Below are positions 110 to 47,975 of a stretch of 64,000 nucleotides of DNA, piece after piece; positions within the stretch are counted from its first letter, which is position 1, and each line of letters starts with the position of its first letter. The notes beneath the pieces were generated by a model that was not told the origin of the DNA, did not search any database, and saw only the letters and a list, made by a program, of their open reading frames with translations. The stretch is from Paenibacillus suaedae (lineage in GTDB: Bacteria; Bacillota; Bacilli; Paenibacillales; Paenibacillaceae). The DNA lies in assembly GCF_032337355.1 (NCBI RefSeq), contig NZ_JAVYAA010000001.1, positions 1,253,905 through 1,317,904 of the forward strand, in the 5' to 3' direction. The position numbers and the translations under genes are program-made.

Positions 110-1444
110 CTAACTGCGGAACAACTGCAAGGGATCAACCCGGTATACCTTCCATGCGGGTCCGATTGATGCAAGGAATCCTACTATCAATGCACCAAGA
201 ACCAGTTGAATCTCTCCTGGTGCAATCCGAAGCGCATCGACATGTACGCCGCTCCATTCCAAGATGGAGCTTGCGCTGAACGATGTCGCGAGATGTCCAA
301 GGAACAAGCCAAGAATAGCGCCAATTCCCGTTAGGAACATGCCTTCTCCGATTAAGATCGTCCATACATACAACCGTGACTTGCCAATTAGCCGCATAAG
401 GCCGACGTCTTTCTTGCGCTCTGTCACGACGGATGTGAGCGATAGCAAGAGGGTGATTGCGGCCAGCAGAACACAGAGGAGCGATACGAACTGCACGAGC
501 TCCGTTCCACGATCCACTACATTGACGACATCCGCTACGGCTTTGCTCGTATATACCGCCTGCACATCGGCACGCTGATTAAATTTGTTCTTTATTGCTT
601 GTGCGCCGAGCAGGGACTTAGGTTGTACGAGAATGGCTGTAATCATCTTATCTTCTTCGTGTGTAATGCCATGTACATGCCAGGCGTAATCGAGTGTCGT
701 GAAGACAGCGCGATCGTCCGCTGTTCCGAGTGTAGGAAGAATGCCTACGATTCGATAATCGAAGTGCTCATGATCATGATGCGATTCGTCGGACTCATTG
801 GAATGCTCTGATCCTGCTTCTTCCGCTGCTTCTACTTGCTGTTCAGAGTGTGTTTCTTGATGCTGATCATTAGAAGATGCCTCCGAACCTGAATCCGAAC
901 CCGATTTCTCATTAGTAGGGTTGTCAAAGGAATGACTGCCACTATTCACAAGGCCATGATTGCCGTGGAACGTATCGCCAACACGCAGACCAAGCTGACT
1001 AGCCACATGCGAGCCGATGACGGCTTCCCCAGTCTTCGCATACATGCCGCCTGCCTTCATACTTTGATCCCCGTAGCGCGTATAGAAGTAGGCTGCATCC
1101 ATGCCGACGATTGGATATCCTTGATAGGAGTCGCCGGCCGTCATCGCATACGCATGAGCAACCTCTGATTCCTTCAGCACATCATGCAGAACCTGTTGAG
1201 GGATGTTCTGGGCAGGAGTGCCGACTCGATAGTAGGTATTCAGCACAAGCTGTGTGGAGCTTCCTTTGGAACCGAGTGTTAATTCGAAGGGGCCATAGCC
1301 CTTCTCAGCACCGTGCTCGATTCCCGCACGAACCTGAAGGAGTACGAGTAGAAGCGCGATGGTAATCGCAATCGATACAATGGTAAGGAGGGAGAGCGTC
1401 TTCCGATGCATCATGTTGCGCCACAGTAGTTGGAACACACTCAT
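110..1444 (-). CDS. ABC transporter permease, FtsX/MacB-like, with an acidic His/Asp/Glu/Ser-rich low-complexity insert in the extracytoplasmic domain
   Basis: 444-aa ORF with N- and C-terminal TM segments typical of the FtsX fold. It overlaps the upstream ATPase gene by 4 nt (ATGA coupling). Confidence 0.7.
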   Translation of the reverse strand: MSVFQLLWRNMMHRKTLSLLTIVSIAITIALLLVLLQVRAGIEHGAEKGYGPFELTLGSKGSSTQLVLNTYYRVGTPAQNIPQQVLHDVLKESEVAHAYAMTAGDSYQGYPIVGMDAAYFYTRYGDQSMKAGGMYAKTGEAVIGSHVASQLGLRVGDTFHGNHGLVNSGSHSFDNPTNEKSGSDSGSEASSNDQHQETHSEQQVEAAEEAGSEHSNESDESHHDHEHFDYRIVGILPTLGTADDRAVFTTLDYAWHVHGITHEEDKMITAILVQPKSLLGAQAIKNKFNQRADVQAVYTSKAVADVVNVVDRGTELVQFVSLLCVLLAAITLLLSLTSVVTERKKDVGLMRLIGKSRLYVWTILIGEGMFLTGIGAILGLFLGHLATSFSASSILEWSGVHVDALRIAPGEIQLVLGALIVGFLASIGPAWKVYRVDPLQLFRS

Positions 1445-2169
1445 GTTGCTGCTCCCTCCATAAGCCGCATGCTGTTCATACTGCTCTTTTCAGCCGGATA
1501 AGGATGTACAGCAAGTCGATTAATGGCGGAGATATGAAGCTGCATCGGGTACTGTGAAGCCAAGTGCTGGTCATGGGTGACTGTCAGCAAGGTTGAACCT
1601 TCCTCCTGTGCCAGTTGGAGAAGGAGATTCATCGTATATTGTGCCGTATCGTAATCGAGACTTCCGGTTGGCTCATCCGCTAGGAGAAGGGAAGGGCGAT
1701 TAATCAGGGCACGAATGATCGCAACCCGCTGCTGTTGACCTCTCGACAGCTGCCCTGGAAGATGATTCATACGATCCTGCAAGCCGACCCGCTCGAACCA
1801 TTGCAGAATATGCGAATGCCGTGCCCGTCCATGCAAGCTGCCATCGTAGACCAGCTCAATATTTTGCTTCGCAGATAGGGAAGAGATGAGATGGAAGTCC
1901 TGAAAAATAATGCCCACATTCTTTGAGCGAAAGTGGTCACGTTCCAGCTCTGTCATCTGGTGCAGAGGTTCATTGCCGACCTTACAGGTTCCTTCATCTG
2001 GAGCGAGTACGCCGCACAGCAGGTATAACAACGTGCTCTTGCCGCTGCCGCTAGGGCCAAGCAGTGCAATTCGATCTCCTTGTGCAACATGCCAATGTGG
2101 AATATCGAGAATGGGAAGAAGCTGCTGTTGATTCCGATAGGACTTGCGTACCTGATGAAGCTGTATCAT
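1441..2169 (-). CDS. ABC transporter ATP-binding protein
   Basis: Walker [13 protein letters not shown] signature [15 protein letters not shown] and Walker B LLLADEPT are all present. Confidence 0.9.
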   Translation of the reverse strand: MIQLHQVRKSYRNQQQLLPILDIPHWHVAQGDRIALLGPSGSGKSTLLYLLCGVLAPDEGTCKVGNEPLHQMTELERDHFRSKNVGIIFQDFHLISSLSAKQNIELVYDGSLHGRARHSHILQWFERVGLQDRMNHLPGQLSRGQQQRVAIIRALINRPSLLLADEPTGSLDYDTAQYTMNLLLQLAQEEGSTLLTVTHDQHLASQYPMQLHISAINRLAVHPYPAEKSSMNSMRLMEGAAT

Positions 2170-2243
2170 AGAATCACCTCATTTAGTAAGGAAAAGGCAG
2201 GATGACACTGTCACCCCACCCGTTCTCATTCGAATCGATTTGA

Positions 2244-3983
2244 TTATTTCAAAATGATGCGCTCAGACAAGGAATCCCACTTCAATGCTTTGCCAGTCAG
2301 CTTGCTGAATGCGTCAAGATCCACGTAGAGGACATTGCGATCCAATTCTGCTGGAATCGAAACCGCTTTGCCGTTCAATGTAACGGAAGATCCGTCTTGA
2401 ACCTTCAATGTCGCCTTGTCTTTCGTAAATGTAGTCGTCTTCGATGCGCTATCATTCGTTACTTTAATTTGCAGTGCTTGTGCCAGCTTCAGGGCAGGGA
2501 AGAGAACCTTGCCATCACGGCTTACCTTGAATTTCGGATACAAGTGCTTGCTTTGCAGCTCGGCAGTTGCTTTCTTCAGATCCAAGCCTTGCACTTTCGC
2601 GATGCTTGTCGCAATTGCTGTGTTATCAATTTGACCTTTTACATATTCCGTAATTGGACCATACGCCCATACGCCTACATCTACCGCAGAGTGGCCGTGT
2701 CCAGACCAGCCCACCAAGTAGCGCTTCGCCATCACTTGATTGAATGCGCCTTCTTGCTTATAGGAAGAACCGTCGCCTTGCATGATGTATTGAGCTTCTT
2801 CATCGGTGATATCTGTGAAGCCTGTATGCTTCTTGATTAACGCCTTCACTTCGTCAGTGGATGCAGCTTTTGCAAGCTGTGGCCCAAGCAGCTCAGAGGA
2901 GATTTTTTGCTTGTCCCAAGTATCTACATTTAGTTCATAGATGTTGTCACGGGACAGGGAGAAGCCGCCTGTCTCATGATCGGCTGTAATTACGATGGAA
3001 GTGTTGCCGTCCTTCTTCGCGAAATCAAGAGCAACCTTCACTGCTGCATCGAAATCAAGCGTCTCTTGAATCATGGCGCCCAGATCATTCGCGTGGCCTG
3101 CATGGTCGATACGTCCGCCTTCAATCATCATCGTGAAGCCTTTTGGATTCGTAGAGAGAGACTTAATTGCTGCAGCCGTCATGTCTGCAAGGCTTGGAGT
3201 CTCAGGCTTGCGATCAAGCACGTAGTCTACATGGGAATCGTGGAAGAGGCCAAGAACCTTGCCGTTTTTCGATGTTAACGATTGCAGGCCCTTTTTGTCG
3301 TATACAACTTTATAGCCTTTTTTCTCGAAATCAGGAATGATTGTCTTGTCTTCGCGCTTGCCTTTCTCCTGCTTGCTTACGAATTGACGCTTGCCGCCTC
3401 CGAGCAGAACGTCAACTGCGCCTGACTCTAAATATTGGGATGCGATGGCATTTTCATTGTCGCGATTGCGAACATGGGATGCATATACCGCAGGTGTCGC
3501 ATGTGTAATACGAGCTGTCGTTACAAGACCAGTTGACTTGCCAACAGCCTTAGAAGCTTCGATTACGGAAGCGAATGGCTTCGAGATATCTTCATTTGAT
3601 ACGCTGATTGCAGCGTTGTATGTTTTGTTGCCTGTTGCAAATGCAGTACCTGCAGATGCAGAGTCTGTTACTTCACCGGATACGATCGTATCTCCGTCTT
3701 CGCCCTTGTCAGCGAAGGTTGTTGCTTGGCCCACATACAGGCTGTCCATATATAAGGATGGACGCTTCAGCTTGTTCTTGGAGTAGATTCGTGCGGCAGA
3801 TACTTGAGCAGGACCCATGCCGTCACCGATAAGGACGATGAGATTTTTCGAAGTAGGTTCTGGTTTTGCTGCACCCTTAGCGAGTACTGCATCGGATTGC
3901 ATAGCTCCGAATGGCAGCATGAGAAGTGCCAGCGTCGTCACCAGCGACTTGCGTAACATTTTATTCAACCGAAATCCCTCCAA
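2244..3983 (-). CDS. secreted alkaline phosphatase (PhoA family) with C-terminal copper-amine-oxidase-N-like stalk domain
   Basis: Signal peptide, DGMGP motif, active-site TDSASAGTA motif and metal-ligand DHAGH are present. The C-terminal region resembles stalk-domain repeats of other proteins in this window. Confidence 0.8.
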   Translation of the reverse strand: MEGFRLNKMLRKSLVTTLALLMLPFGAMQSDAVLAKGAAKPEPTSKNLIVLIGDGMGPAQVSAARIYSKNKLKRPSLYMDSLYVGQATTFADKGEDGDTIVSGEVTDSASAGTAFATGNKTYNAAISVSNEDISKPFASVIEASKAVGKSTGLVTTARITHATPAVYASHVRNRDNENAIASQYLESGAVDVLLGGGKRQFVSKQEKGKREDKTIIPDFEKKGYKVVYDKKGLQSLTSKNGKVLGLFHDSHVDYVLDRKPETPSLADMTAAAIKSLSTNPKGFTMMIEGGRIDHAGHANDLGAMIQETLDFDAAVKVALDFAKKDGNTSIVITADHETGGFSLSRDNIYELNVDTWDKQKISSELLGPQLAKAASTDEVKALIKKHTGFTDITDEEAQYIMQGDGSSYKQEGAFNQVMAKRYLVGWSGHGHSAVDVGVWAYGPITEYVKGQIDNTAIATSIAKVQGLDLKKATAELQSKHLYPKFKVSRDGKVLFPALKLAQALQIKVTNDSASKTTTFTKDKATLKVQDGSSVTLNGKAVSIPAELDRNVLYVDLDAFSKLTGKALKWDSLSERIILK

Positions 3984-8395: not shown

Positions 8396-9670
8396 ATGAA
8401 GAGGCTGATAACATTGCAATTAGAAAATTTCGCAGAAATTCTTAAAGTAATCTTTCCACGAAGTGAAGTTAAACATGATACAGATAAAATTATTTTCGAG
8501 TACAGAGGATTAGAAATTAAAATTGATCAAATTCAAATCTCTGAGTTATCAGATAGACTTTCAATTTTAGAACATAGGGAAAGTACATTGTTGTATTCCG
8601 ATAATTATTACGAAACTCTTGTTAGTTTTGAAGGCAGAAGAATTATGTCTCGATTTGAGAATAATTTTGATGTCGAGGATACTCAAAATAATATTAATTA
8701 TTTAATTGGTAAGGCTTCTGATGAATATATCCTATTTTTATTGCAAGTTCTTCATACAAACGATCTTCTAAGAGAATTTACCAGAAGAACATTTTATCCA
8801 TCACACATGTTGCAGGAACGCTTTGAGAGATCTGGTAGTACTAATGTTTTCGATTTTTTAAGGATTGGTTTAAGAAATTTATATACCTTAAAAATTACAA
8901 CTAGAGATTCAAAAAGCTATGCAGAATTCGAACGCTATAATAATTCATTCTTATTCCACTTGGCGTATAATTTTGATGCTTCAATTGTTGAAATTAAATT
9001 GCTTGAAGATTTTTTGAATTCTCAACGATTAGAACGAATTCGCAGGAATACTGACGAAGTAGATCCTCCTCGAAGAAGATATATTCCTGAACTTGTATAT
9101 CATTATCAAATGGCTGTTGCATCAGAAAGTCCATATCTACAATTTATATCTTACTATCATGTAATTGAGCACTTCTTCGAGAAGATTTATAATGAGGAGT
9201 TAGTCAAAGTTGTACAAGATACCGTTTCTAGTCCAAGCTTTTCACTTAAAAGAGAGAACGATATTAAGAAAGTTATTAGAGTAATTAACAACAAATTAAG
9301 AGCAAGACATGAGGAATATTCAATTAATGAAAGAGAAGCATTAGAGTTAACTTTAATCAAGTATATTGATTCAAATTCACTTAAAGAAAAACTAAAAGAG
9401 TATGATGACTCGTTACTTGATTTCTACCATGATAATGAAGTTGTCTTCTCAGGAGGAGCAACTATTAATTTTGATTCGCCACAAGAAAAAGAAATCCTAA
9501 AAAAAATATCTTCGAGAATTTATTCAACAAGAAATTCAATTGTCCATAGTAAGGAAAATGACAAATTAAAATATACGCCTTTCAAGCATGACAGGTATTT
9601 AATTAAAGAAATACCTTTAGTAAGATTTATTGCTGAAGAAATTATATTATCAAACTCAAAACTTTTGTAG
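8396..9670 (+). CDS. hypothetical protein with C-terminal HEPN-like Rx4H motif (RNSIVH); candidate Abi/defence RNase
   Basis: 424-aa ORF in a low-GC island. A C-terminal R-x4-H motif sits in a predicted helical region. Alternative TTG start at 8414 has RBS AAGAGG. Confidence 0.45.
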   Translation: MKRLITLQLENFAEILKVIFPRSEVKHDTDKIIFEYRGLEIKIDQIQISELSDRLSILEHRESTLLYSDNYYETLVSFEGRRIMSRFENNFDVEDTQNNINYLIGKASDEYILFLLQVLHTNDLLREFTRRTFYPSHMLQERFERSGSTNVFDFLRIGLRNLYTLKITTRDSKSYAEFERYNNSFLFHLAYNFDASIVEIKLLEDFLNSQRLERIRRNTDEVDPPRRRYIPELVYHYQMAVASESPYLQFISYYHVIEHFFEKIYNEELVKVVQDTVSSPSFSLKRENDIKKVIRVINNKLRARHEEYSINEREALELTLIKYIDSNSLKEKLKEYDDSLLDFYHDNEVVFSGGATINFDSPQEKEILKKISSRIYSTRNSIVHSKENDKLKYTPFKHDRYLIKEIPLVRFIAEEIILSNSKLL

Positions 9671-10944: not shown

Positions 10945-11715
10945 ATGAGTGTAAATGCTGAATCATCTGTAATTACAAATGATAATGAAGAAAATAATGA
11001 GCTGAATACTGACTTAATTGGCCTCGATTTTGTTGATTTAAAAATTCAAAAACTAATGGGAGAGAAGATAGCTGACCAAAAACTAACAAATGCATTAAGA
11101 TTTCTTTTCGGAATAATAACAGTTGTAGGAATCCTGATAATATTTCATGTAATTGATACTTTTCTTTATATCGGGATTATCTTAGTCATAATAGGTGGGG
11201 GAATTTTTGGAGCGAGTTTTTCTGATACGAAACAAAGTAAGTTTGACACTGAAATAAGAGCACTTGAGTTGCAGAAACAACGGCTTGAAAAAAAGTCTAC
11301 AAATAACAACACGAGCAGGTATTTTGATAGTTTGGTATCAATTAATCTAAGAAATCTAGAAGAATATTATGATCTAGTCAAGCTTAGTAATAAGAAGTCA
11401 TTCTATTCTTCATTAGTAATGAGTTTTTTTGGAATACTGATCATCTCAGGTGCTCTCACAGTATCATATTTTAGTTCAGAGTTTAAAGATATTACTTATA
11501 TAGTAACAGCTGCAGGAATATTAGTAGAAGTAATATCTGGGTTAATGTTCTTCCTATATAGTAGAACTGTCCTGCAACTTAAAAGTTACCATGACAGTTT
11601 AATCGATGTTCAGAATGTATTACTATCATTTAAGTTAATCGAGGATACAAAAGATGAGCAAATGAGATCTGAGGTAATGAAACAAATGATAGAAAATTTA
11701 ATTAAACGTAAATAA
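10945..11715 (+). CDS. membrane protein with two TM hairpins and central coiled-coil (candidate pore-forming effector partner of the TIR protein; SLATT-like organisation)
   Basis: 256-aa ORF. Two pairs of strongly hydrophobic helices flank a charged coiled-coil segment, with no enzymatic motif. Confidence 0.55.
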   Translation: MSVNAESSVITNDNEENNELNTDLIGLDFVDLKIQKLMGEKIADQKLTNALRFLFGIITVVGILIIFHVIDTFLYIGIILVIIGGGIFGASFSDTKQSKFDTEIRALELQKQRLEKKSTNNNTSRYFDSLVSINLRNLEEYYDLVKLSNKKSFYSSLVMSFFGILIISGALTVSYFSSEFKDITYIVTAAGILVEVISGLMFFLYSRTVLQLKSYHDSLIDVQNVLLSFKLIEDTKDEQMRSEVMKQMIENLIKRK

Positions 11716-34179: not shown

Positions 34180-34354
34180 AGCTAATGGGTAATGATAGTA
34201 AAGTTGAGCAAACAACCGCAGCGGTCAGCTTTGTCGTTGAAGTAACTGGCAGGATAGTTGAATGATTTTGCGAATAACTTAAGTCATGACGAATTTACGA
34301 AGTTCGCAAAAAAGACGTTAGCCGAAAGAAGTTCTTAGTTTAGGAGGAGTCTAT

Positions 34355-35125
34355 ATGATATTAGAAAAAGTTATAAATAGAATTGTAATACAAAGTGAAT
34401 ATAAGGATTTTGTTGATAAGTATATAGATAATATACTTACCGAATTTAAAGGTAAGATTCATAGCATTTATATGTGTGGCTCAATTCCAAAAGGAACTGC
34501 TAAACCTTTTAAGTCAGATGCAGACTTTACTATTGTATGTGTAAATCCCAAAGATATTGATTACGAAAGATTGTCAAATATTAAAGACAGGCTTTTGGAA
34601 GAATATCCAGTATTAACTAAGATTGATACGATAATTTGCTCGATTGACGATGTATTAAGTAAACCAAATGATTGGGGTTTTTGGGTAAAGATAATTTGTG
34701 TTTGCATATATGGTCATGACGTTGGTGAAAAAGTACCACCGATAATTATTTCTCCAGAGTTCATTTTAGACTTAAATACAGAGACCAAGAAGGAAGTAGA
34801 TCGTATTCATAGTTTACTTTCTAATGCTAGTGATAACACAATGAAAACTAGATATATTAAAGGTTACTCTAAGAGATTAATTCGTGCATTATACTCTTTG
34901 GTTTTAGAAGATACAGGTGTATGGCAAGATGACATTATTATGATGAAGAATGCCATATTAAACTATTGTGAGATTGACTCCGCTTTAGTTGATTATCTGT
35001 ATGCTTGTTACTTGGATAGTAATAATGTACTTGTTGAAGAGTTTCTGGGAATTGCAGATGAAGTATATAGCTATTTTGAGAACGCGTTAAATGCAATGGC
35101 TGCTTCCAGAACTTCCTTCGACTAA
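34355..35125 (+). CDS. Pol-beta-type nucleotidyltransferase-domain protein (KNTase/ANT-like architecture)
   Basis: Motif GSIPKGTAKPFKSDADFTIV (GS-x9-13-D-x-D) with a helical C-terminal domain. RBS AGGAGG. Confidence 0.5.
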   Translation: MILEKVINRIVIQSEYKDFVDKYIDNILTEFKGKIHSIYMCGSIPKGTAKPFKSDADFTIVCVNPKDIDYERLSNIKDRLLEEYPVLTKIDTIICSIDDVLSKPNDWGFWVKIICVCIYGHDVGEKVPPIIISPEFILDLNTETKKEVDRIHSLLSNASDNTMKTRYIKGYSKRLIRALYSLVLEDTGVWQDDIIMMKNAILNYCEIDSALVDYLYACYLDSNNVLVEEFLGIADEVYSYFENALNAMAASRTSFD

Positions 35126-35329
35126 CACCATATTGACGTTTCGGGTCACTCTGAGAAGCGAGTGACCACATCCAGCCCCCTAAGCCCGTCGGGACGTCAC
35201 TGCATTAGGTGTTCGGCAAGCCTCACAACTATAAGCAGCGACTCTAATTAAAACATAAGACTATTGAGCTAACGGGCAGGTTAGTACAGATATGGTTTTC
35301 CTTTTAATTCAAATAATTGACTTTAAATA

Positions 35330-35602
35330 GCTATTACCGTAGAATGAGGAAAATTACATATTAATGCTTTAATGGAGAAAGTATATCAATTCCTTCTTAC
35401 AGGGAGGAAACGCCCGAGATTGAGAGCGCTTCTAGGGAAAAGGGTTAAATGAAGTTCGCTCCGGAGCAGTCCTTTGAAACCTTTCTAGCTAAGCAGAGGT
35501 GTACCGGTTTAACCGTTATTCATTATAGTGTGAACTTTTAAATAATTTTCTAATATAGGGTGGTACCGCGGCTCCTCGTCCCTTTGGAAGAGGGGCTTTT
35601 TG
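35330..35602 (+). promoter_or_regulatory. T-box riboswitch leader with terminator
   Basis: Canonical T-box sequence AATATAGGGTGGTACCGCGG at 35553-35572, F-box CCGTTA at about 35512, GAGAG element, and a terminator hairpin with T tract at 35573-35602. Confidence 0.6.
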
Positions 35603-35742
35603 TATTCAATGAAGTTATATTCTGCAACATTATCCATTAGATTGCGTTTATCTAACTGAAGGGGAGCGTATCGCAAAGAATTTTCGAAGACAAGAATTGA
35701 GCGAGGGTCAAGAATATGATAGAAACGTGGAAGGAAACATCT

Positions 35743-36528
35743 ATGAAAAAAACAATAATCGCACTAACACTTTCTTTTGTGTGTACCTTACTAATCGGTA
35801 ATCCAACGATAAGCTTCGCCAATAATTTTTCGAATACGGTTGACAATGGAAAAGTTGAAAATGGACGAGTACTGATTCCATTACGTGCTGTTTCAGAAAG
35901 ATTCAATTCAGAAGTGATCTGGAATCAGGCAAAAAAAAGCATTACGATTATTCGTGGCAATCGAGAGCTATTGCTGTATGTTAATTCTCACACTGCTTTA
36001 TTAAATAACGCTGCTTTCAAGCTTGATGTGCCAGCAAAAATTGATAATGGAACAACTTATGTACCAGCACGTGTTTTTGCTGAAGCCTTTGGCGGAACAG
36101 CGCTGTGGTCCGAACAAGAACGAAAAGCAACCATTACGATCGGACAGCAACAGGTCTTTATCCGTACAGAGCCACTCAAGTCTTGGAGAATGAGTCAGGA
36201 GAGAATAGACGTGCTTAATACAAAGATAAATGAAGCCACCGATCTCTCAAGCTATTCGCAAATTCGAACCTATTTCAGACCTTATTTCACGGACGCATTT
36301 ATAAACAAGATTATTTACAGTAATGGCATTAAAAATAACGCTATACTAACAAAAAAGGCCGATATTACCTACGACAGCACCACAGCGGCAGGAATGCACC
36401 AATCTGCTTACCTTGAAAGTGGTCCTATCAATCTCGAGCTCGTTGATCGTTATGTATTCTATAAATTTGTTGATAACCAATGGAAGGTAGACGATGTGAA
36501 TGTGGGCAGACAAATAATTGAGCCATAA
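35743..36528 (+). CDS. secreted protein with copper amine oxidase N-terminal-like stalk domain
   Basis: RBS GGAAGGA 7 nt upstream. Signal peptide. Motif RVLIPLRAVSERFNSEVIWNQ. Confidence 0.6.
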   Translation: MKKTIIALTLSFVCTLLIGNPTISFANNFSNTVDNGKVENGRVLIPLRAVSERFNSEVIWNQAKKSITIIRGNRELLLYVNSHTALLNNAAFKLDVPAKIDNGTTYVPARVFAEAFGGTALWSEQERKATITIGQQQVFIRTEPLKSWRMSQERIDVLNTKINEATDLSSYSQIRTYFRPYFTDAFINKIIYSNGIKNNAILTKKADITYDSTTAAGMHQSAYLESGPINLELVDRYVFYKFVDNQWKVDDVNVGRQIIEP

Positions 36529-36592
36529 TACGGATTAGCAGTCCATTAAGAGGCTATTTCGAGTCAGAGGACAAAAATATACTAACATTTTG

Positions 36593-36625
36593 AAGCCGCT
36601 AATTATGCGGCTTTTTATTTTTATT
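36593..36625 (+). terminator. rho-independent terminator
   Basis: agccgc-taattat-gcggct followed by TTTTTATTTTTATT. Confidence 0.8.
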
Positions 36626-36737
36626 CCCGACTGATTACAAGAACTTTGTTACATTCCCGATATTATGATTTTAAGTGAGTTATGGCGACTGTACGAAGCT
36701 GATAAACGTATCAAGGGCTTTTGTTCAAGTACATTGA

Positions 36738-36908
36738 AAGCCTAGCAGTTTTACCGGGGATCAGGCGCGTACTTATCGTGAGGGAGGCACGGGTCTCGGT
36801 CTGTTCATCGCGAAAAATATCGTGACTCAGCATCAAGGTACGATTACGGCCCAAAGCAGTTCGATTCGCACGCTTTTTGAAATCCGGTTTTCGAAGCTGG
36901 ACCTTTAA
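36738..36908 (+). pseudogene. C-terminal fragment of a sensor histidine kinase (HATPase_c G2 box GGTGLGL)
   Basis: 57 codons, REGGTGLGLFIAKNIVTQHQGTI, with no upstream kinase body. Confidence 0.6.
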
Positions 36909-37261
36909 GGAAAATTTAAACTTAACCCTACTTCTTATTTTATATTTCTGCCCTATTCTTAATGAATGAATGGGAGGAGGAACCAATGAATGAAGAAGTG
37001 GGTTTTTGGTACGGCTTCATTATGACGAGAACGATAAAAAAATGGATCCAAAAGGATGCTTTAGCGGCATTGATGTTTCTCGCCTAAAATCCGAAACAAG
37101 TCCAGTGAAGCGAATGGCAAGGAAACAATGATTCAATCGGATAATCTCTATGAGGAAGACCTGATTATTCTAGAAAGCAGTGAGCCTTTACAAGACGGAA
37201 ACCGTGTTCATTTGCAATAGTTATACATATATGTGATGAAAATTCAGGAGGAATTCATTCA

Positions 37262-38563
37262 ATGAAAAAGTGTTTTTGTATCCTATTTATTGGTATTTTA
37301 ACATTGTCAATGACCGCATGCGGTTCTGGAGGCAGCAATGAATCGGCAAGTACGGAGAAACCGGAAATAAAAGAAGGGAAAACAATCGTTACTTTGGCGT
37401 TGCAGCTATGGCCTACACAATCGAGCACATTTTATAAGACGATAGAAAAAAAGGTTGAAGAAAAGTATCCGGACATCGATCTGCAACTTCAGATTTCAGA
37501 TGATTTTGAAAAATACCAAAAAACGACGAATGCAGCGCTACTATCGGGCAAAGGTCCGGATATTTTCGAAATCAGCAATTTGCCTATCGAAGATTATGTG
37601 AACAAAAAGCTTGTCCTGAACATGGATGAGCTCATCGAGCAAGACAAAACGGTGAATAAAAGCGATTTGCAAATGAACATTTTGGATGCGGTAAAGCTGA
37701 ACGGCGGTTCTTATGCCATGCCCTTAGGGTTCACCCTGCGGACGTTCGTAGGGGATGGGGACATTCTTAAGAACGCGAATGTTGACGATAAGAATTGGAC
37801 ATGGAAGGAGTTCGAAGAGATTTCGAAAAAACTGGGAGATAGCGGCTCGGAACGCCGCTACGCTTTAGCGAATGACCCCCCGGAGCTAATCCTTCAAGAG
37901 CTGATTGTCGATAAATACACGGAATTCGTTGATCCTACAGCGAAAAAAGCCAAATTCGACTCGCCCTTATTTCTGGAAACGATGCAACAAATCAAAAAAA
38001 TGTTTGATGATAAAGTAATGACTTCGGAACCAGCGGATATAGGCAAGCAAATGTTTTATTCTACTGTTTTGCAATCGCCGGCAGAATTAATCAATGGCCC
38101 TCATCTTCTCTTCTCCGATCCGAAGTTGCTGCAAAAACCTGAACAAAAAGGCGGAACGAGGATTGTTGTAGCATCCCGGTTCGCAATAAATGCCAAATCT
38201 CCGGTTAAAGAGGAGGCTTGGAAGGTTATTGCTTACTTGTTATCCGAAGAAGTGCAATCGCTACAAGAGAGAGAAGGGTTTTCACTGCTTAAATCCGTGA
38301 ATGAGAAGCAGTTGAACGACATTCAAGAACAAGTTAAAAGTGGGACGTACAAGCTTCCAGACGGGAAAGCGCCTAAGGTGTCGGACGAAGAGTTCACTCA
38401 GTTCAAACAATTCATTAATACAGCGGATAACTATTCGGATGCGGACGGTCGTGTGATTTCCATTATCGGAGATGAGGTCAGATCATTCTTTAGCGGACAA
38501 AAGTCTGCGGAAGAAGTAGCCAAGCTGATCCAGAACAAGGTGACAACTTTATTAAACGAATAA
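37262..38563 (+). CDS. ABC transporter solute-binding lipoprotein (family 1, carbohydrate-type); orphan
   Basis: Lipobox LSMTAC. 433 aa. No permease genes follow. Confidence 0.7.
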   Translation: MKKCFCILFIGILTLSMTACGSGGSNESASTEKPEIKEGKTIVTLALQLWPTQSSTFYKTIEKKVEEKYPDIDLQLQISDDFEKYQKTTNAALLSGKGPDIFEISNLPIEDYVNKKLVLNMDELIEQDKTVNKSDLQMNILDAVKLNGGSYAMPLGFTLRTFVGDGDILKNANVDDKNWTWKEFEEISKKLGDSGSERRYALANDPPELILQELIVDKYTEFVDPTAKKAKFDSPLFLETMQQIKKMFDDKVMTSEPADIGKQMFYSTVLQSPAELINGPHLLFSDPKLLQKPEQKGGTRIVVASRFAINAKSPVKEEAWKVIAYLLSEEVQSLQEREGFSLLKSVNEKQLNDIQEQVKSGTYKLPDGKAPKVSDEEFTQFKQFINTADNYSDADGRVISIIGDEVRSFFSGQKSAEEVAKLIQNKVTTLLNE

Positions 38564-38695: not shown

Positions 38696-38941
38696 AGTTC
38701 AGTCCTAGTCCGCCGATGCTTCTTATTACGGGGTCAGTCTAAAACTTATTTTACAGAGGCGCCGATTTTGCAATTCAAAAGCCGCATAGGATCAACAACC
38801 TCGGTACAATAGTATATTTTCCCGTGACAATTACGGTGCTGGTTTATTGAACTAACCGTGCCTGTTAGTTTCATGAATACAGTTATAGAAGATCATGAAC
38901 AGAGTAAAAATACTCTCATCATGAGTGATTTGTCTACTTCA

Positions 38942-39508: not shown

Positions 39509-39878
39509 AAACGCTCGCCTTTCTATTAATGTTGTCGTAGTCTATGTGTTCATGATTTTAGCATAATTCTCAGTAACGTACATCATTTTCACTGCTCTTG
39601 ATTGGTTTACAATGCTAGGAGACTGCACAGAGTGAAGACATGTGGGAGCTAGGAGCAGCTTGTGCAGATGCAGCAGTAGGAGGTTGCAAGGACGTTGCCA
39701 TCGAGCCACTGATGTATGCTCTGTCCGGCACACTGAAATACTGGAGAATTATTAGATACGATGATTTTCGCCGATTCTCTATTAGGGAGTCGGTTTTTTT
39801 TTGTAATTTAAAATATTTTTACTGAACATCGTCTTTTTGATGATTCATATCGTTAATAGAGATGAGGGGGGGAGTACT

Positions 39879-40457
39879 GTGCTTTCCGATGAGGAGCTAA
39901 TTACAGAAATACGAAGCGGCAGCCAAGCTGCAATGGAGATGCTGGTCAAGCGGCATTACGCGATGATCTTCTCATACATCTATCGCAAGATCGGGAACCA
40001 TCATACTGCATATGATCTGACGCAAGAAGTATTCATCAAGATGATGCAATCGCTGCCCAGCTATCAGAGCCATGGCAAGTTCGAACATTGGCTGCTGAAA
40101 ATTGCTGTTAATCACTGTCTAGACTACTACCGCAGCAAACAGTATCGTAACTCGCATGTCCAAGCTGAACTGGACGAGACGATTCCGGATGCTCATAGCA
40201 ACGTATGGGACTTATTCCAGTTGCATGACCAGCAGGAACAAGCGAAGCAGGCTGTGCTCGCTCTGCCGGAACATCAGCGAGATGCTATCATTCTCAATTA
40301 TTATCATGGGCTTAAGATACGAGAGATTGCGGATGTGACGGGAGCAAATGAATCGACCATTAAATCTCGTATTCGTTCGGGAATTTCAAGGCTGAAGAAA
40401 ATGCTGCTAGGAGAGGAGGAATCGAGCGATGAGCAAGCGGAGAGAAAACAAGGGTAA
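39879..40457 (+). CDS. ECF (sigma-70 family) RNA polymerase sigma factor
   Basis: Likely GTG start after RBS GAGGGGGGGAG. Region 2 YDLTQEVFIKM and region 4 IADVTGANESTIKSRIRSG are present. Confidence 0.7.
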   Translation: MLSDEELITEIRSGSQAAMEMLVKRHYAMIFSYIYRKIGNHHTAYDLTQEVFIKMMQSLPSYQSHGKFEHWLLKIAVNHCLDYYRSKQYRNSHVQAELDETIPDAHSNVWDLFQLHDQQEQAKQAVLALPEHQRDAIILNYYHGLKIREIADVTGANESTIKSRIRSGISRLKKMLLGEEESSDEQAERKQG

Positions 40458-41310
40458 GTCAGTTTGGGAGGAGGACATGGAGAAAGCGGACGATCTTGAT
40501 GCAGAGCTGTGGATGCTTGAATCGGTATTACAGCAATACCGTGTGGAACTGCCCGAGGAACAGCGAATCAATACTACCATTGACGTACTGCGACAATATG
40601 TCCCTGATATAAGCGAAAACCCGCGGGAAGTATCAATGATGAGCTATTGGCGACGATGGATCAACCTGTGGAAGATAGCTGCTGCTGATATTGGCATGTT
40701 CAGTAAGCTGTACTGGATAAGTTGTCTTATTTTGTTCGGGGCAGGGGGATGGATGGGTGTGACTGTTCAGCAGATGCCTGCTATCGTAGTCATTCTTTTT
40801 TCACCGCTTCCGTTCGTGATTGGGTTATTAGAAGTGTTCAAGGGAAGGGAGCAGGGGGTTCTGGAAATGGAGCTGGCCTGCAAAGTTTCTGCACAGGAGC
40901 TAATGCTATCGCGTCTGCTTTTTATCGTAATGAATAGTCTTATTCTGAACACCTGCTTATCTGGCCTAGTATATCTTGTTCGTGGCGATATTTCATTTTG
41001 GGGTCTAACGTGGACTTGGTTTACACCGTTTATCATCGTTGCTAGCTCATCTCTATGGCTGGCTATGCGTATCCGATGTACCGTCAGTTCGATGGTGACA
41101 ATAAGCATATGGATGGCTGTCGGAATGATCTTACTCACACGTCCGGATATGCTAACGCGCATGATGGATTTACATATACTCATTACGATTTTGGTTAATG
41201 CAGGTGCAGTGTATCTTCTATTCAGACAAGGGTGGAAGCTGCTGCGAAATCACACCTTTATTGCGGAAGGAAGCTTAAGCTATGGAGCTAACGATTCAGA
41301 ATATTTCTAA
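40429..41310 (+). CDS. polytopic membrane protein, probable anti-sigma factor
   Basis: Overlaps the sigma gene. Six or more TM helices. Confidence 0.5.
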   Translation: MSKRRENKGKSVWEEDMEKADDLDAELWMLESVLQQYRVELPEEQRINTTIDVLRQYVPDISENPREVSMMSYWRRWINLWKIAAADIGMFSKLYWISCLILFGAGGWMGVTVQQMPAIVVILFSPLPFVIGLLEVFKGREQGVLEMELACKVSAQELMLSRLLFIVMNSLILNTCLSGLVYLVRGDISFWGLTWTWFTPFIIVASSSLWLAMRIRCTVSSMVTISIWMAVGMILLTRPDMLTRMMDLHILITILVNAGAVYLLFRQGWKLLRNHTFIAEGSLSYGANDSEYF

Positions 41311-42151
41311 ACAATTCAAAGAGCTTGTTGCCGTCAATCAATTTACTGCTGAATTAAGCTGCGGTGTATATGGCTTGCTGGGCCCGAATGGAGCGGGAAA
41401 GACAACATTGCTGCGCATGCTTGCGGATATTCTGCGTCCAACTAGCGGCATGATTCGGTTGAATGGGCAGGATATACGAACGATGGAAGAGCGTTATCGG
41501 GATGTCCTCGGCTATTTGCCCCAGCAATTTGGATACTACAGGCAGTTCACTGGGCGACGATTTCTCATGTACATTGCGGCGTTAAAAGGGCTTGAAAAAA
41601 GGGCTGCAGCTACAAAGGTCGAGGAAGTTCTTCAACTGGTCGGTCTTGGTTATGAAGCAGACTCTAAAATAAAATCCTACTCCGGAGGTATGCGGCAGCG
41701 GCTCGGTATAGCGCAAGCATTATTGAATGATCCGAAGGTGCTCATCCTGGACGAGCCTACTGCCGGACTTGATCCAACAGAACGAATTCGTTTTCGCAAT
41801 ATATTATCGGAAATGTCCGCAAATCGGATCATCCTGTTATCAACTCATATTGTGTCGGATATCGAGTACGTTGCCAAAGATGTGCTGCTTATGAAACAAG
41901 GATACCTGCTCAAGCAAGATAGGCTCGTCTCTTTATTAAAAGAATTGAAGGAATCGGTATGGAAGGTCACGGTTGATGAAAATCAGCTCCCCGTCTTGAA
42001 ACAGCGTTACAAGATAGTCAATATCCTTCGCCGTGACAGTGGGGTTGAGGTTCGTATCCTGTCTCCAGACAAGCCGCTGCTGACAGCTCAGCCAGTGACG
42101 GCAGGATTGGAAGACCTATATTTTCATTATTTTAATGAGGAGATTATGTAA
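41282..42151 (+). CDS. ABC transporter ATP-binding protein (BcrA-like)
   Basis: GPNGAGKTT, SGGMRQRLGIAQALL, LILDEPTAGLD. Confidence 0.85.
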   Translation: MELTIQNISKQFKELVAVNQFTAELSCGVYGLLGPNGAGKTTLLRMLADILRPTSGMIRLNGQDIRTMEERYRDVLGYLPQQFGYYRQFTGRRFLMYIAALKGLEKRAAATKVEEVLQLVGLGYEADSKIKSYSGGMRQRLGIAQALLNDPKVLILDEPTAGLDPTERIRFRNILSEMSANRIILLSTHIVSDIEYVAKDVLLMKQGYLLKQDRLVSLLKELKESVWKVTVDENQLPVLKQRYKIVNILRRDSGVEVRILSPDKPLLTAQPVTAGLEDLYFHYFNEEIM

Positions 42152-43278
42152 TGAGACAGTTATTGAGGTACGAGCTGTTGAAGATCGTATGGCGCAAGAG
42201 CGTATTTGTTGTTGGTCTATTAATTGCAGCTATCTATACGGTGGTTATTGCATTTCATGCTGAATATTATCAAGATGGGTCAAAAGAATACCGCTCATAT
42301 GCGCGTGAGATTACAGCAGAAGATATTCAGCGGGTGGATGAAAGATACAAGAGGAGCAACTGGCATCAGCTGCCGATTCAAGAAAAAAGTATTATGGAGG
42401 ATATCTCAGGAATACCCAATATGCTGCATAAATATGAACAGAAACTGATCGATATCGACATGCGGCTCATGCTAAGCAAGCCTGACTCATACGAATATAA
42501 ACAAAACAAATTACAAGAAAAACTACTGTCGGAGCAAGGGCCGCCAACCGCTCAATTATACTATAATATGCCATGGGGCGAATTGATCTATATGGTCGAT
42601 CAATTTGGTGTTGCCTTCATGGGAGCCATGCTTCTCATCGGACTTTCTCCAATCTATTCAGAAGAATATACTAGGAGGATGGACAGCTTGCTCTTAAGCA
42701 GCAGACATGGGCGAAGCAAGCTTATTCATGCAAAATGCTTAGCAGCTATTCTGTACACCTTGTTGTGTGTCCTGGTATTTCAGCTGATCAATATGGGGGT
42801 AACGGCCTTGTTGTTTGGCAACTTGGATGGAGCCACCACACCTCTTGATAGTATGAGAAGGTATGGAGACACACGTCCTTTTGCAGAATATCCGTATTCA
42901 TTCACCGTGTTAGAGTACTATTTTATTCAATTAGGGGTGCAAACCATTGGCTGTGCAGCATTTGCGATTGCCGTGACGTTTATTTCCTCACTTAGCCGTT
43001 CATCGTTGGTCACGATGTTGCTAGCGGGGGGCGTACTTGGAATTCCCTATCTACTATTGGATGTTCGTAATATTCGTTATCCGATTATCGAATGGATGGT
43101 GACATTCGGCTACAGTCAGTTTATCCGGGTTACACATCTTTTCAACAGTTTCCGTACAGTTAATCTCTTTGGGGAGCCTATCCTATATCCGATAGCTGCA
43201 TTAGCAGCTCTTTTGGCAGTGACGGCCGTCTTTGTATGGGGAACAACCTTGTTATTCCGACGTCGGCAAGCATGGTAG
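42151..43278 (+). CDS. ABC-2 type transporter permease
   Basis: ATGA overlap. Six TM helices. Confidence 0.7.
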   Translation: MRQLLRYELLKIVWRKSVFVVGLLIAAIYTVVIAFHAEYYQDGSKEYRSYAREITAEDIQRVDERYKRSNWHQLPIQEKSIMEDISGIPNMLHKYEQKLIDIDMRLMLSKPDSYEYKQNKLQEKLLSEQGPPTAQLYYNMPWGELIYMVDQFGVAFMGAMLLIGLSPIYSEEYTRRMDSLLLSSRHGRSKLIHAKCLAAILYTLLCVLVFQLINMGVTALLFGNLDGATTPLDSMRRYGDTRPFAEYPYSFTVLEYYFIQLGVQTIGCAAFAIAVTFISSLSRSSLVTMLLAGGVLGIPYLLLDVRNIRYPIIEWMVTFGYSQFIRVTHLFNSFRTVNLFGEPILYPIAALAALLAVTAVFVWGTTLLFRRRQAW

Positions 43279-46420: not shown

Positions 46421-46669
46421 GTGGACGGGTTTGGGGGATATTTAGCCGATAGTTCAAAGCCATTCCCTAATTTCTTTCCAGTTGGACTATTTACAACACG
46501 CGAATTAGCTATTAACCAAATTGAAGCCATGCCCAGAGATAATAATTATCAGCTACTTCGGATGCCGATAAATAAAGACTTTTCGTATTTCCATAAAAAG
46601 AGTGGAAAGTTAGTTGGAATGGATGCTATTCATCACGAACATTTTCATTATAAAGACGAGTCAAATTAA
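46421..46669 (+). CDS. small hypothetical protein
   Basis: 82-aa ORF. Start uncertain. Confidence 0.35.
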   Translation: MDGFGGYLADSSKPFPNFFPVGLFTTRELAINQIEAMPRDNNYQLLRMPINKDFSYFHKKSGKLVGMDAIHHEHFHYKDESN

Positions 46670-46676
46670 TCATTAA

Positions 46677-46694
46677 GCTAACGGGCAGTTTAGC
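46677..46694 (+). repeat. array motif copy (gctaacgggcagtttagc) 8 nt after stop
   Basis: Seen directly in the sequence. Confidence 0.6.
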
Positions 46695-46781
46695 TTGGGA
46701 AATGTTAAGCAATGTGATAGGGGAATTGGTCTATCTGTAGAATTAATAATCATTTATTGTTTATTTAGGAGACCTAACCTT

Positions 46782-47099: not shown

Positions 47100-47113
47100 C
47101 TCCAATCGGTTGA

Positions 47114-47130
47114 GCTGACGGGCAGGATAG
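47114..47130 (+). repeat. array motif copy (gctgacgggcaggatag)
   Basis: Seen directly in the sequence. Confidence 0.6.
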
Positions 47131-47433
47131 TTTAATGATTTCGCCGAATTCATCTTCAGAGGTGAAAAGAATATGAAAACTATATTTTTAGTTCAACATT
47201 CTTAAGAGGTCGGGGAAGATGTATGATGAGCCAGGTCTTAGGGATTATTTAGATGCTTTTTATATTAGTGAATATGAAATTGACAAAGATAATTGGACAG
47301 AAGGGTTTAGTAAATGGTCAGAAGCGAATGAACAAGTGAATGAGTAACTTGTTTCTACGTTGAACTAACGGAGAACGATAGTTGAATACAGACACGAAGG
47401 CAGCCGGTCATAATGATCGGATGCCTTTGTTTT

Positions 47434-47450
47434 ACTAACGGGCAGTTTAC
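47434..47450 (+). repeat. array motif copy (actaacgggcagtttac)
   Basis: Seen directly in the sequence. Confidence 0.6.
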
Positions 47451-47483
47451 TTCGAAAAGGTATGAAGAAAGGACTATTCTAAC

Positions 47484-47922: not shown

Positions 47923-47954
47923 TCATGGATCGGCAGCCACGTTGCGCTAACCGG
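47923..47954. repeat. perfect 12-bp-stem palindrome acgtggctgccg-tcatggat-cggcagccacgt
   Basis: A T tract follows only on the minus strand. Confidence 0.6.
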
Positions 47955-47957
47955 CAG

Positions 47958-47975
47958 GATAATGGTAATGGAATA
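47958..47975 (+). repeat. array motif copy (gctaaccggcaggataat)
   Basis: Seen directly in the sequence. Confidence 0.55.

Follow-up and report, generated by a model that had tools for sequence, protein, structure and literature searches.

A phenylalanine-class T-box leader, probably stranded by cassette shuffling, upstream of a stalk-protein gene in Paenibacillus suaedae

A 64-kb stretch of DNA from Paenibacillus suaedae (contig NZ_JAVYAA010000001.1, positions 1,253,905 to 1,317,904, hereafter the window, numbered from its first letter) carries a T-box leader in front of a gene for a secreted stalk protein, which lies outside aminoacylation, amino-acid synthesis and transport and so does not match the phenylalanine specifier of the leader. 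The reading we favour, at a probability of roughly 60%, is that a T-box leader of the type found before pheS has been stranded by cassette shuffling beside a stalk-gene unit with a promoter of its own, of extracytoplasmic function (ECF) type, and that the tRNA-recognition half of the leader is eroding. The linkage of leader and stalk gene is missing in relatives, a promoter motif is conserved downstream of the leader, the leader sits in the context of a repeated junction site, and its sequence deviates from pheS leaders at otherwise invariant positions.

The leader matched the Rfam T-box model RF00230 over its full length (model positions 1–219) at 83.8 bits when cmscan was run in E-value mode, with E = 1.6e-18 for the region and E = 1.1e-16 for the whole window, and this was the sole RNA-family match in the window at E ≤ 0.05. 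The default Rfam scan, which applies gathering scores, gave zero matches in the window, the gathering score of RF00230 being 93 bits. That score is stricter than the family itself, and real leaders are missed by it: nine genuine pheS leaders scored with the same model ranged from 75.3 to 116.3 bits, two of them under 93 (84.7 and 75.3). Since pheS leaders span this range, 83.8 bits speaks neither against T-box identity nor for decay. The initial annotation of this region, made from the sequence letters, had named an RF00230 match above threshold as its check; by the letter this fails, while the E-value and the pheS leaders that likewise fall below 93 bits bear the identification out. Unconstrained minimum free energy (MFE) folding recovered the T-box fold for neither the leader nor its Stem I, and the leader folded no better than its shuffles (z = −0.57); structure was judged instead from the model alignment and from constrained folds with controls.

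The 3′ half of the leader shows the normal logic of a T-box switch (Table 1). The 5′ arm of the terminator overlaps the 3′ strand of the antiterminator, so the two form a mutually exclusive pair, and a terminator scan independently marked 35578–35596 inside the terminator. The UGGN bulge, through which a T-box pairs with the NCCA end of a tRNA, is present as UGGU, and further upstream lies an S-turn specifier loop (AGUA/GAA) whose bulge has, at its 3′ end, a codon and then a purine. The predicted sigma-A-type promoter would start transcription ∼8–14 nt upstream of where the T-box model begins; sigma-A-like sites are no more numerous in the region than in shuffles, and support for this promoter is therefore positional. 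The T-box consensus, the F-box-like CCGTTA, the AGUA/GAA elements and the terminator hairpin with its T tract had all been placed correctly by the initial annotation. Its GAGAG element (35422–35426), on the other hand, falls in the distal loop of Stem I, the actual AG bulge being AGGGA, and its description of the T-box as intact and complete applies to the 3′ half and not to the 5′ tRNA-recognition half, where the deviations lie.

The leader can be assigned to the phenylalanine class from its specifier. By the TBDB rule, the specifier is made up of positions 2–4 of its bulge, counted from the 3′ end (PMC7778990). In the window the 3′ side of the bulge, before the CUCC strand, reads GAAGUUCG, which by this rule gives UUC (Phe) followed by a purine. 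Metagenome contigs were scanned for the exact segment GAAGTTCGCTCCGGAGC joined to the T-box core, yielding 17 loci; the 17-nt specifier segment GAAGUUCGCUCCGGAGC is identical in all of these leaders, and 16 of the 16 with a readable downstream open reading frame (ORF) precede pheS. PheS was confirmed by Pfam at two loci (tRNA-synt_2d, E ∼ 1e-105, and Phe_tRNA-synt_N), and the remaining PheS ORFs are 39–98% identical to a confirmed one. These results, with the position of the bulge, exclude the specifiers that had been proposed at the outset, ACG and UAU/AUC, which lie off the specifier position. The 17 metagenome leaders share only conserved motifs with the window leader; beyond these motifs it is no close sequence relative of any leader retrieved. 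The discriminator A that the initial annotation had drawn from UGGU stands, and discriminator A fits tRNA-Phe.

The 5′ half departs from pheS leaders at several places. In the 5′ strand of the kink-turn the window has AA where 15 of 15 pheS leaders have GA, as does the Paenibacillus nucleotidyltransferase T-box described below; the basal GA motif of Stem I, a conserved but not strictly defining feature, is thus absent. In the S-turn of Stem II the window has GCA (AGCA for AGUA, through C35494), compared with GUA in 17 of 17 pheS leaders. It is possible to draw a canonical Stem I of 21 standard pairs, at −5.9 kcal/mol, but the preferred in-frame fold consists of two hairpins at −17.1 kcal/mol, one of which sequesters the AG bulge, in energy models that are poor for T-box motifs; the helix above the specifier loop is weak. 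In this test the specifier frame was closed, the loop left open and the interior folded. Under the same conditions one continuous stem was obtained for 12 of 15 pheS leaders and for both AT-rich Paenibacillus nucleotidyltransferase T-boxes, and because the latter fold as one stem at 38% GC, base composition is ruled out as the cause of the split Stem I. The G–A pair of the kink-turn and the S-turns matter for T-box function, and for that reason we read the AA and GCA deviations as early erosion, in which the tRNA-recognition half of the leader would have begun to degrade.

The gene downstream of the leader is, as the initial annotation had it, a signal-peptide protein with a copper-amine-oxidase-N-like domain. 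Its AlphaFold model has a confidence (pLDDT) of 83, and Foldseek matches to NTF2-like folds identify an NTF2-like C-terminal domain. An IseA inhibitor identity was considered for this C-terminus and rejected, with a Pfam score of 19.6 bits against a cut-off of 29.9, no sequence match in the PDB and a generic NTF2-like fold. A second use of the stalk domain occurs in the window, at the C-terminus of an alkaline phosphatase (2244–3983, minus strand; Cu_amine_oxidN1).

Comparison of stalk loci separates this gene from the leader. Orthologues occur in many Paenibacillus species at 71–92% amino-acid identity, and at the 18 orthologue loci aligned at the nucleotide level the homology with the window begins ∼10 nt past the T run of the T-box terminator; upstream of ∼35615 the window has nothing in common with them. 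A motif search found the T-box core in none of the 18, and cmscan (E ≤ 0.1), applied to five of them including the closest relatives (94.7% identity), found no T-box. Synteny had been suggested as a way to see whether a tRNA-synthetase or transporter gene follows this leader in relatives; what the 18 loci show is stalk genes without the leader. Because the likeness upstream of the gene among the relatives themselves extends only to about −125 to −200, the stalk gene travels as a compact unit. This unit (L001–L015 and L023–L025 among our numbered comparison loci) keeps 83–95% nucleotide identity across species while its flanks are unrelated, a pattern that suggests recent horizontal spread; one record is labelled Neobacillus mesonae. 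The stalk gene of L014 and L015, broken into two ORFs, is probably a pseudogene.

The stalk unit also contains a predicted promoter between the T-box terminator and the gene. Its elements, CTGCAACATT and CGTT, are invariant in 11 of 11 aligned sequences (the window and ten relatives) with a spacer of N16/17, and the TGCAAC/CGTT pattern has one further match in the window, against 0.25 expected. The ECF consensus has ‘AAC’ at −35 and ‘CGT’ at −10 with a spacer of 14–17 bp (PMC5758882), and with its 16–17 nt spacer the motif resembles the sigma M/X/W/V ECF promoters of Bacillus subtilis. Placed 3′ of the T-box terminator and invariant in all 11 sequences, the motif indicates that the stalk gene brings its own promoter; both this promoter and the sigma-A-like leader promoter are predicted to be active. 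Some 4 kb downstream, 39837–43278 encodes an ECF sigma factor (gene 39837–40457), a putative membrane anti-sigma factor and an ABC transporter as an operon. This sigma factor could recognise the TGCAAC…CGTT promoter; in other genomes, its gene and the stalk gene are unlinked.

What lies immediately upstream of the leader is a copy of a 28-bp imperfect palindrome (11-6-11), whose consensus from 28 distinct copies is ATTAAGCTAAC-GGGCAG-GATAGTTnAAT. The site usually stands directly after the T run of a terminator, in the orientation of the gene, and bounds small cassettes; besides the window it occurs in L002, L008, L011, L014, L015, L043–L046 and L048–L054, and prophage-like contigs carry it as well. 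Near-identical cassettes are found in different neighbourhoods. The phenylalanine leader starts right after the site that ends the neighbouring nucleotidyltransferase cassette. Identity among five genomes runs through …GCTAACGG and is lost within the spacer of the site, and the left end of the cassette behaves alike. In L002 a 28-bp site precedes the stalk unit by ∼25 nt; compared with that locus, the window has a block of ∼315 nt, made up of promoter, T-box and terminator, inserted between site and stalk promoter. The pattern points to site-specific exchange of Xer/dif type at the 28-bp sites, and the palindrome arrays have the look of a Paenibacillus cassette system, dif-like or integron-like, not described before; a search of the literature accessible to us found no description of a cassette system with these sites. 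The only recombinase-like sequence seen beside an array, a fragment of a Phage_integrase tyrosine recombinase, lies with an IS110 transposase at the end of one in L043 (2983–3162 and 3344–4600) and may point towards the enzyme acting on the sites.

The nucleotidyltransferase cassette to the left of the leader offers a second view of T-boxes in these arrays. It is 95–97% identical at the nucleotide level to L043–L046, a mobile unit in other species, and NCBIfam and PDB searches gave only weak, uninformative matches as to the function of its product. The orthologue has a full-length T-box of its own in Paenibacillus sp. BK720 (L043, 770–974, 93.8 bits; L044, 96–300) and in Paenibacillus sp. BS8-2 (L045, 5755–5959, 90.1 bits), and Paenibacillus sp. 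FSL W8-0187 (L054, ∼1180–1400) has the same leader as judged from the core motif (1362) and alignment only. The order in these units is site, TTGACT-17-TAATAT promoter, T-box, terminator, GGGAGG, ATG. Their T-box has a canonical kink-turn and a continuous Stem I, with Stem II largely absent. Read by the TBDB rule, its specifier bulge, GAAAAUGCCAG/CCUG, would give Pro (CCA/CCU), and in the −1 frame Ala (GCC); the three copies are ∼98% identical and thus too alike for a covariation test. To judge from this arrangement, the nucleotidyltransferase is a genuine non-canonical T-box target in three Paenibacillus species, and we found no prior description of a T-box joined to such a cassette. The gene stands without a T-box in the window, in L046 and in P. 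xylanexedens (L055/L056), and sequence common to both forms begins only at the ribosome-binding site (RBS). In L054 an IS110-family transposase gene (1362–3001) follows directly on the T-box terminator and splits the leader from the nucleotidyltransferase gene. Because the cassette occurs with and without a T-box and has been split in this way, T-box leaders here are exchangeable 5′ modules that do get orphaned. The 3′ untranslated part of the window cassette (35137–35250) is GC-rich with a GGTCACTC…GAGTGACC hairpin kept in all five genomes compared, and it has no Rfam match.

Table 1. Coordinates of the leader, the stalk-gene unit, the junction sites and neighbouring features in the window
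Feature	Position	Strand	Details
Sigma-A-type promoter (predicted)	35317–35345	+	TTGACT-17-TAGAAT; 10/12 consensus matches
T-box leader, RF00230	35360–35586	+	cmscan, 83.8 bits
Stem I	35366–35467	+	cmscan alignment
Kink-turn 5′ strand (UUUAAU)	35368–35373	+	A35371 in place of the G of the sheared G–A pair
AGUA of specifier-loop S-turn	35380–35383	+	partner GAA at 35451–35453, flanking the specifier loop
AG bulge AGGGA	35401–35405	+	in Stem I
Stem I distal loop	35414–35425	+	reads …UUGAGA; cmscan alignment
Specifier codon UUC (Phe)	35455–35457	+	next come purine G35458 and the CUCC stem strand
Stem II and Stem IIA/B	35470–35518	+	S-turn GAA 35476–35478; C35494 in place of the U of AGUA
F-box CCGUUA (DNA CCGTTA)	35513–35518	+	cmscan alignment
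T-box sequence	35552–35571	+	AATATAGGGTGGTACCGCGG (RNA AAUAUAGGGUGGUACCGCGG); UGGU bulge 35561–35564; matches model consensus
Antiterminator	35557–35583	+	canonical fold, −4.1 kcal/mol
Intrinsic terminator	35570–35601	+	hairpin 35570–35597, −16.7 kcal/mol, then UUUUUGU
Stalk-gene unit	35615–36563	+	83–95% nucleotide identity to 18 Paenibacillus orthologue loci
ECF-sigma-type promoter (predicted)	35623–35648	+	TGCAAC-N16-CGTT; ∼20 nt after the T-box terminator
Secreted stalk protein gene	35743–36528	+	signal-peptide-like hydrophobic N-terminus; Cu_amine_oxidN1 aa 37–131, Pfam E = 2.4e-28
Stalk-gene terminator	36592–36614	+	terminator scan; junction-site position after it degenerate
28-bp site, left boundary of nucleotidyltransferase cassette	34233–34268	+	profile E = 2.3e-7; L046 homology starts inside, at 34244
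Nucleotidyltransferase gene	34355–35125	+	256 aa; NTP_transf_2, Pfam E = 7.8e-5
28-bp site, end of nucleotidyltransferase cassette	35261–35294	+	ATTGAGCTAAC-GGGCAG-GTTAGTACAGA; profile E = 7e-8
Further 28-bp site	38844–38876	−	
Further 28-bp site	46669–46697		
Further 28-bp site	47107–47142		
Further 28-bp site	47427–47460		
Further 28-bp site	47940–47965		
Weaker 28-bp copy	47358		
Weaker 28-bp copy	50394		
Histidine-kinase C-terminal fragment	36738–36908	+	HATPase_c profile positions 63–107 of 111 only, E = 9e-7

Taken together in the reading we favour, a class I transcriptional leader of pheS type would be transcribed from the sigma-A-like promoter, and uncharged tRNA-Phe would pair through its ACCA end with the UGGU bulge, a weak antiterminator competing with a strong terminator. 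The leader would have arrived as a 5′ module directly after a 28-bp recombination-type junction site, its original partner gene having been lost or swapped out, and would now abut a horizontally spread stalk unit with its own ECF-sigma-type promoter without being the ancestral regulator of that gene. Most transcripts from the T-box promoter would end at the terminator while the stalk gene is expressed from its own promoter, and tRNA-dependent read-through would probably be weak or lost because the recognition half has begun to erode. We infer both the order of these rearrangement events and the loss of leader function. The initial annotation had left a choice between an orphan leader stranded by rearrangement and a non-canonical regulon member. 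The orphan explanation is the one favoured here, with one correction: nothing points to an in-place deletion of a tRNA-synthetase gene, neither intact nor remnant pheS/pheT having been found in the window, and cassette shuffling takes the place of deletion. (A weak tblastn match to pheS/pheT at 3558–3782 proved spurious: it lies antisense to the alkaline phosphatase gene, and two stop codons interrupt its frame.) As for the regulon member, a T-box at none of the 18 orthologue loci and an invariant ECF-type promoter of its own argue against that role for the stalk gene.

Several observations sit uneasily with a stranded leader. A copy of this phenylalanine leader with a partner gene was not found in plasmids or viral contigs. 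The only strain-level relative found, contig L047 (99.8%, via the solute-binding protein), ends at window position 36679 and leaves the leader uncovered; the window's nucleotidyltransferase, stalk and GNAT proteins do not themselves figure in the records. The leader is in sense orientation with no terminator between 35601 and 35743, so any T-box read-through would reach the stalk gene, and in the sister nucleotidyltransferase cassettes T-box modules do control a gene unrelated to amino acids. AA in the kink-turn and GCA in Stem II may be typical of the lineage, the pheS comparison set containing no Paenibacillus leaders, and nearest-neighbour folding handles the Stem I of T-boxes poorly. Finally, promoter, F-box, T-box sequence, antiterminator and terminator are free of defects, which would be unexpected for an old relic.

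These points give some room to a live regulator, in which read-through stimulated by uncharged tRNA-Phe would be added to an envelope-stress ECF promoter in front of the stalk/NTF2 gene, as a lineage-specific arrangement acquired via cassette shuffling. We consider this unlikely, though the strongest of the alternatives. The promoter, the S-turn specifier loop, the distal platform motifs, the F-box, the T-box bulge and the terminator/antiterminator logic are all present, the score lies within the range of pheS leaders, and the orientation and lack of an intervening terminator would permit such control; the compact T-box–nucleotidyltransferase units show that non-canonical cassette targets exist in the genus, and T-box antitermination works in Paenibacillus (PMC8002221). 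However, the arrangement occurs at none of the 18 orthologue loci, and with a separate promoter downstream of the terminator T-box control could only be additive. The join also lies upstream of the stalk promoter and not at the RBS as in the nucleotidyltransferase unit, substitutions fall at positions invariant in 15–17 pheS leaders, the Stem I topology is disfavoured, and no functional link connects phenylalanine supply with a secreted stalk/NTF2 protein. A broader version, in which T-boxes are portable 5′ modules of the dif-like 28-bp cassette system that wire accessory genes to tRNA charging and this leader still works, placing the stalk/NTF2 gene under tRNA-Phe, appears more doubtful still; if it were true, a working instance would be seen in the nucleotidyltransferase cassette, whose T-box is of Pro or Ala type.

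Less probable again is a role independent of tRNA, in which the terminator insulates the stalk ECF promoter or the ∼250-nt transcript serves as a small tRNA-Phe-binding RNA. It would account for a pristine 3′ half with terminator beside an eroded 5′ half, and a terminator followed by a junction site is the normal punctuation of cassettes in these arrays. Against it, the upstream nucleotidyltransferase cassette already ends in a conserved hairpin region and junction site of its own, an insulator would not need the strong promoter of the leader, and comparative evidence for conservation was not found. That the match is a chance resemblance and not a T-box can be ruled out for practical purposes: the sub-threshold score, the empty default scan and the unremarkable MFE are outweighed by the E-value of 1.1e-16 with full model coverage, the consensus core with F-box, S-turn, UGGU and overlapping terminator, the genuine pheS leaders that also score below 93 bits, and a specifier segment matching that of the pheS-linked leaders. 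The leader at 35360–35586 is a T-box, and a stranded one remains the explanation we favour.

The region 3′ of the stalk gene agrees with local rearrangement. After the stalk terminator come the kinase fragment, which the initial annotation had noticed at 36738 as a sign of regional decay and which retains only the G2-box end of HATPase_c, and a degenerate junction. Degenerate sequence fills 36909–37261 before a stand-alone SBP_bac_1 solute-binding protein gene (37262–38563), and the three together look like what is left of a sensor/regulator/binding-protein triad. Also downstream of the stalk terminator (36623–36673) is a repeated element that contains an internal ACATTCCCGA duplication; L014 has copies of it just before junction sites (8562–8605 and 11295–11342), and the element may explain why contig L047 breaks off at 36679.

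Set beside known systems, the window leader is like Firmicutes pheS T-box leaders in its full architecture, from Stem I through Stem III to the terminator/antiterminator, and in its specifier segment; unlike them it has no pheS/pheT behind it, AA for GA, GCA for GUA and a weak helix above the specifier loop. With the BK720, BS8-2 and FSL W8-0187 nucleotidyltransferase units, whose target is the orthologue of its own left-hand neighbour in the same family of arrays, it shares the order of site, TTGACT-type promoter, T-box and a gene outside amino-acid supply. It differs from them in its UUC (Phe) specifier, where theirs would be Pro or Ala, and in being followed by another promoter, where their terminator leads directly to the RBS and ATG of the gene. 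The 28-bp sites resemble the Xer/dif pdif modules known on Acinetobacter plasmids (PMC6449649) in bounding small units, near-identical copies of which stand in different surroundings, and in their length, 11-bp inverted arms, 6-bp spacer and breakpoints inside the spacer, but here the arrays are chromosomal and in Paenibacillus, the sites lie mostly in direct orientation after terminators, their sequence is unlike known dif and recombination is deduced from the junctions only. An identity as integron attC sites was rejected, since the palindrome is short and conserved in sequence, not long and conserved in structure.

This case carries a caution for annotation, in that a T-box match before an odd gene need not define a new member of the regulon, a question that comparative context settles quickly. 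More broadly, the cassette arrays capture the gain, swap and orphaning of T-boxes at defined recombination-type junctions, and so would offer a concrete route by which riboswitch regulons change. The T-box–nucleotidyltransferase units of the sister genomes provide a testable case of control by tRNA charging outside amino-acid metabolism.

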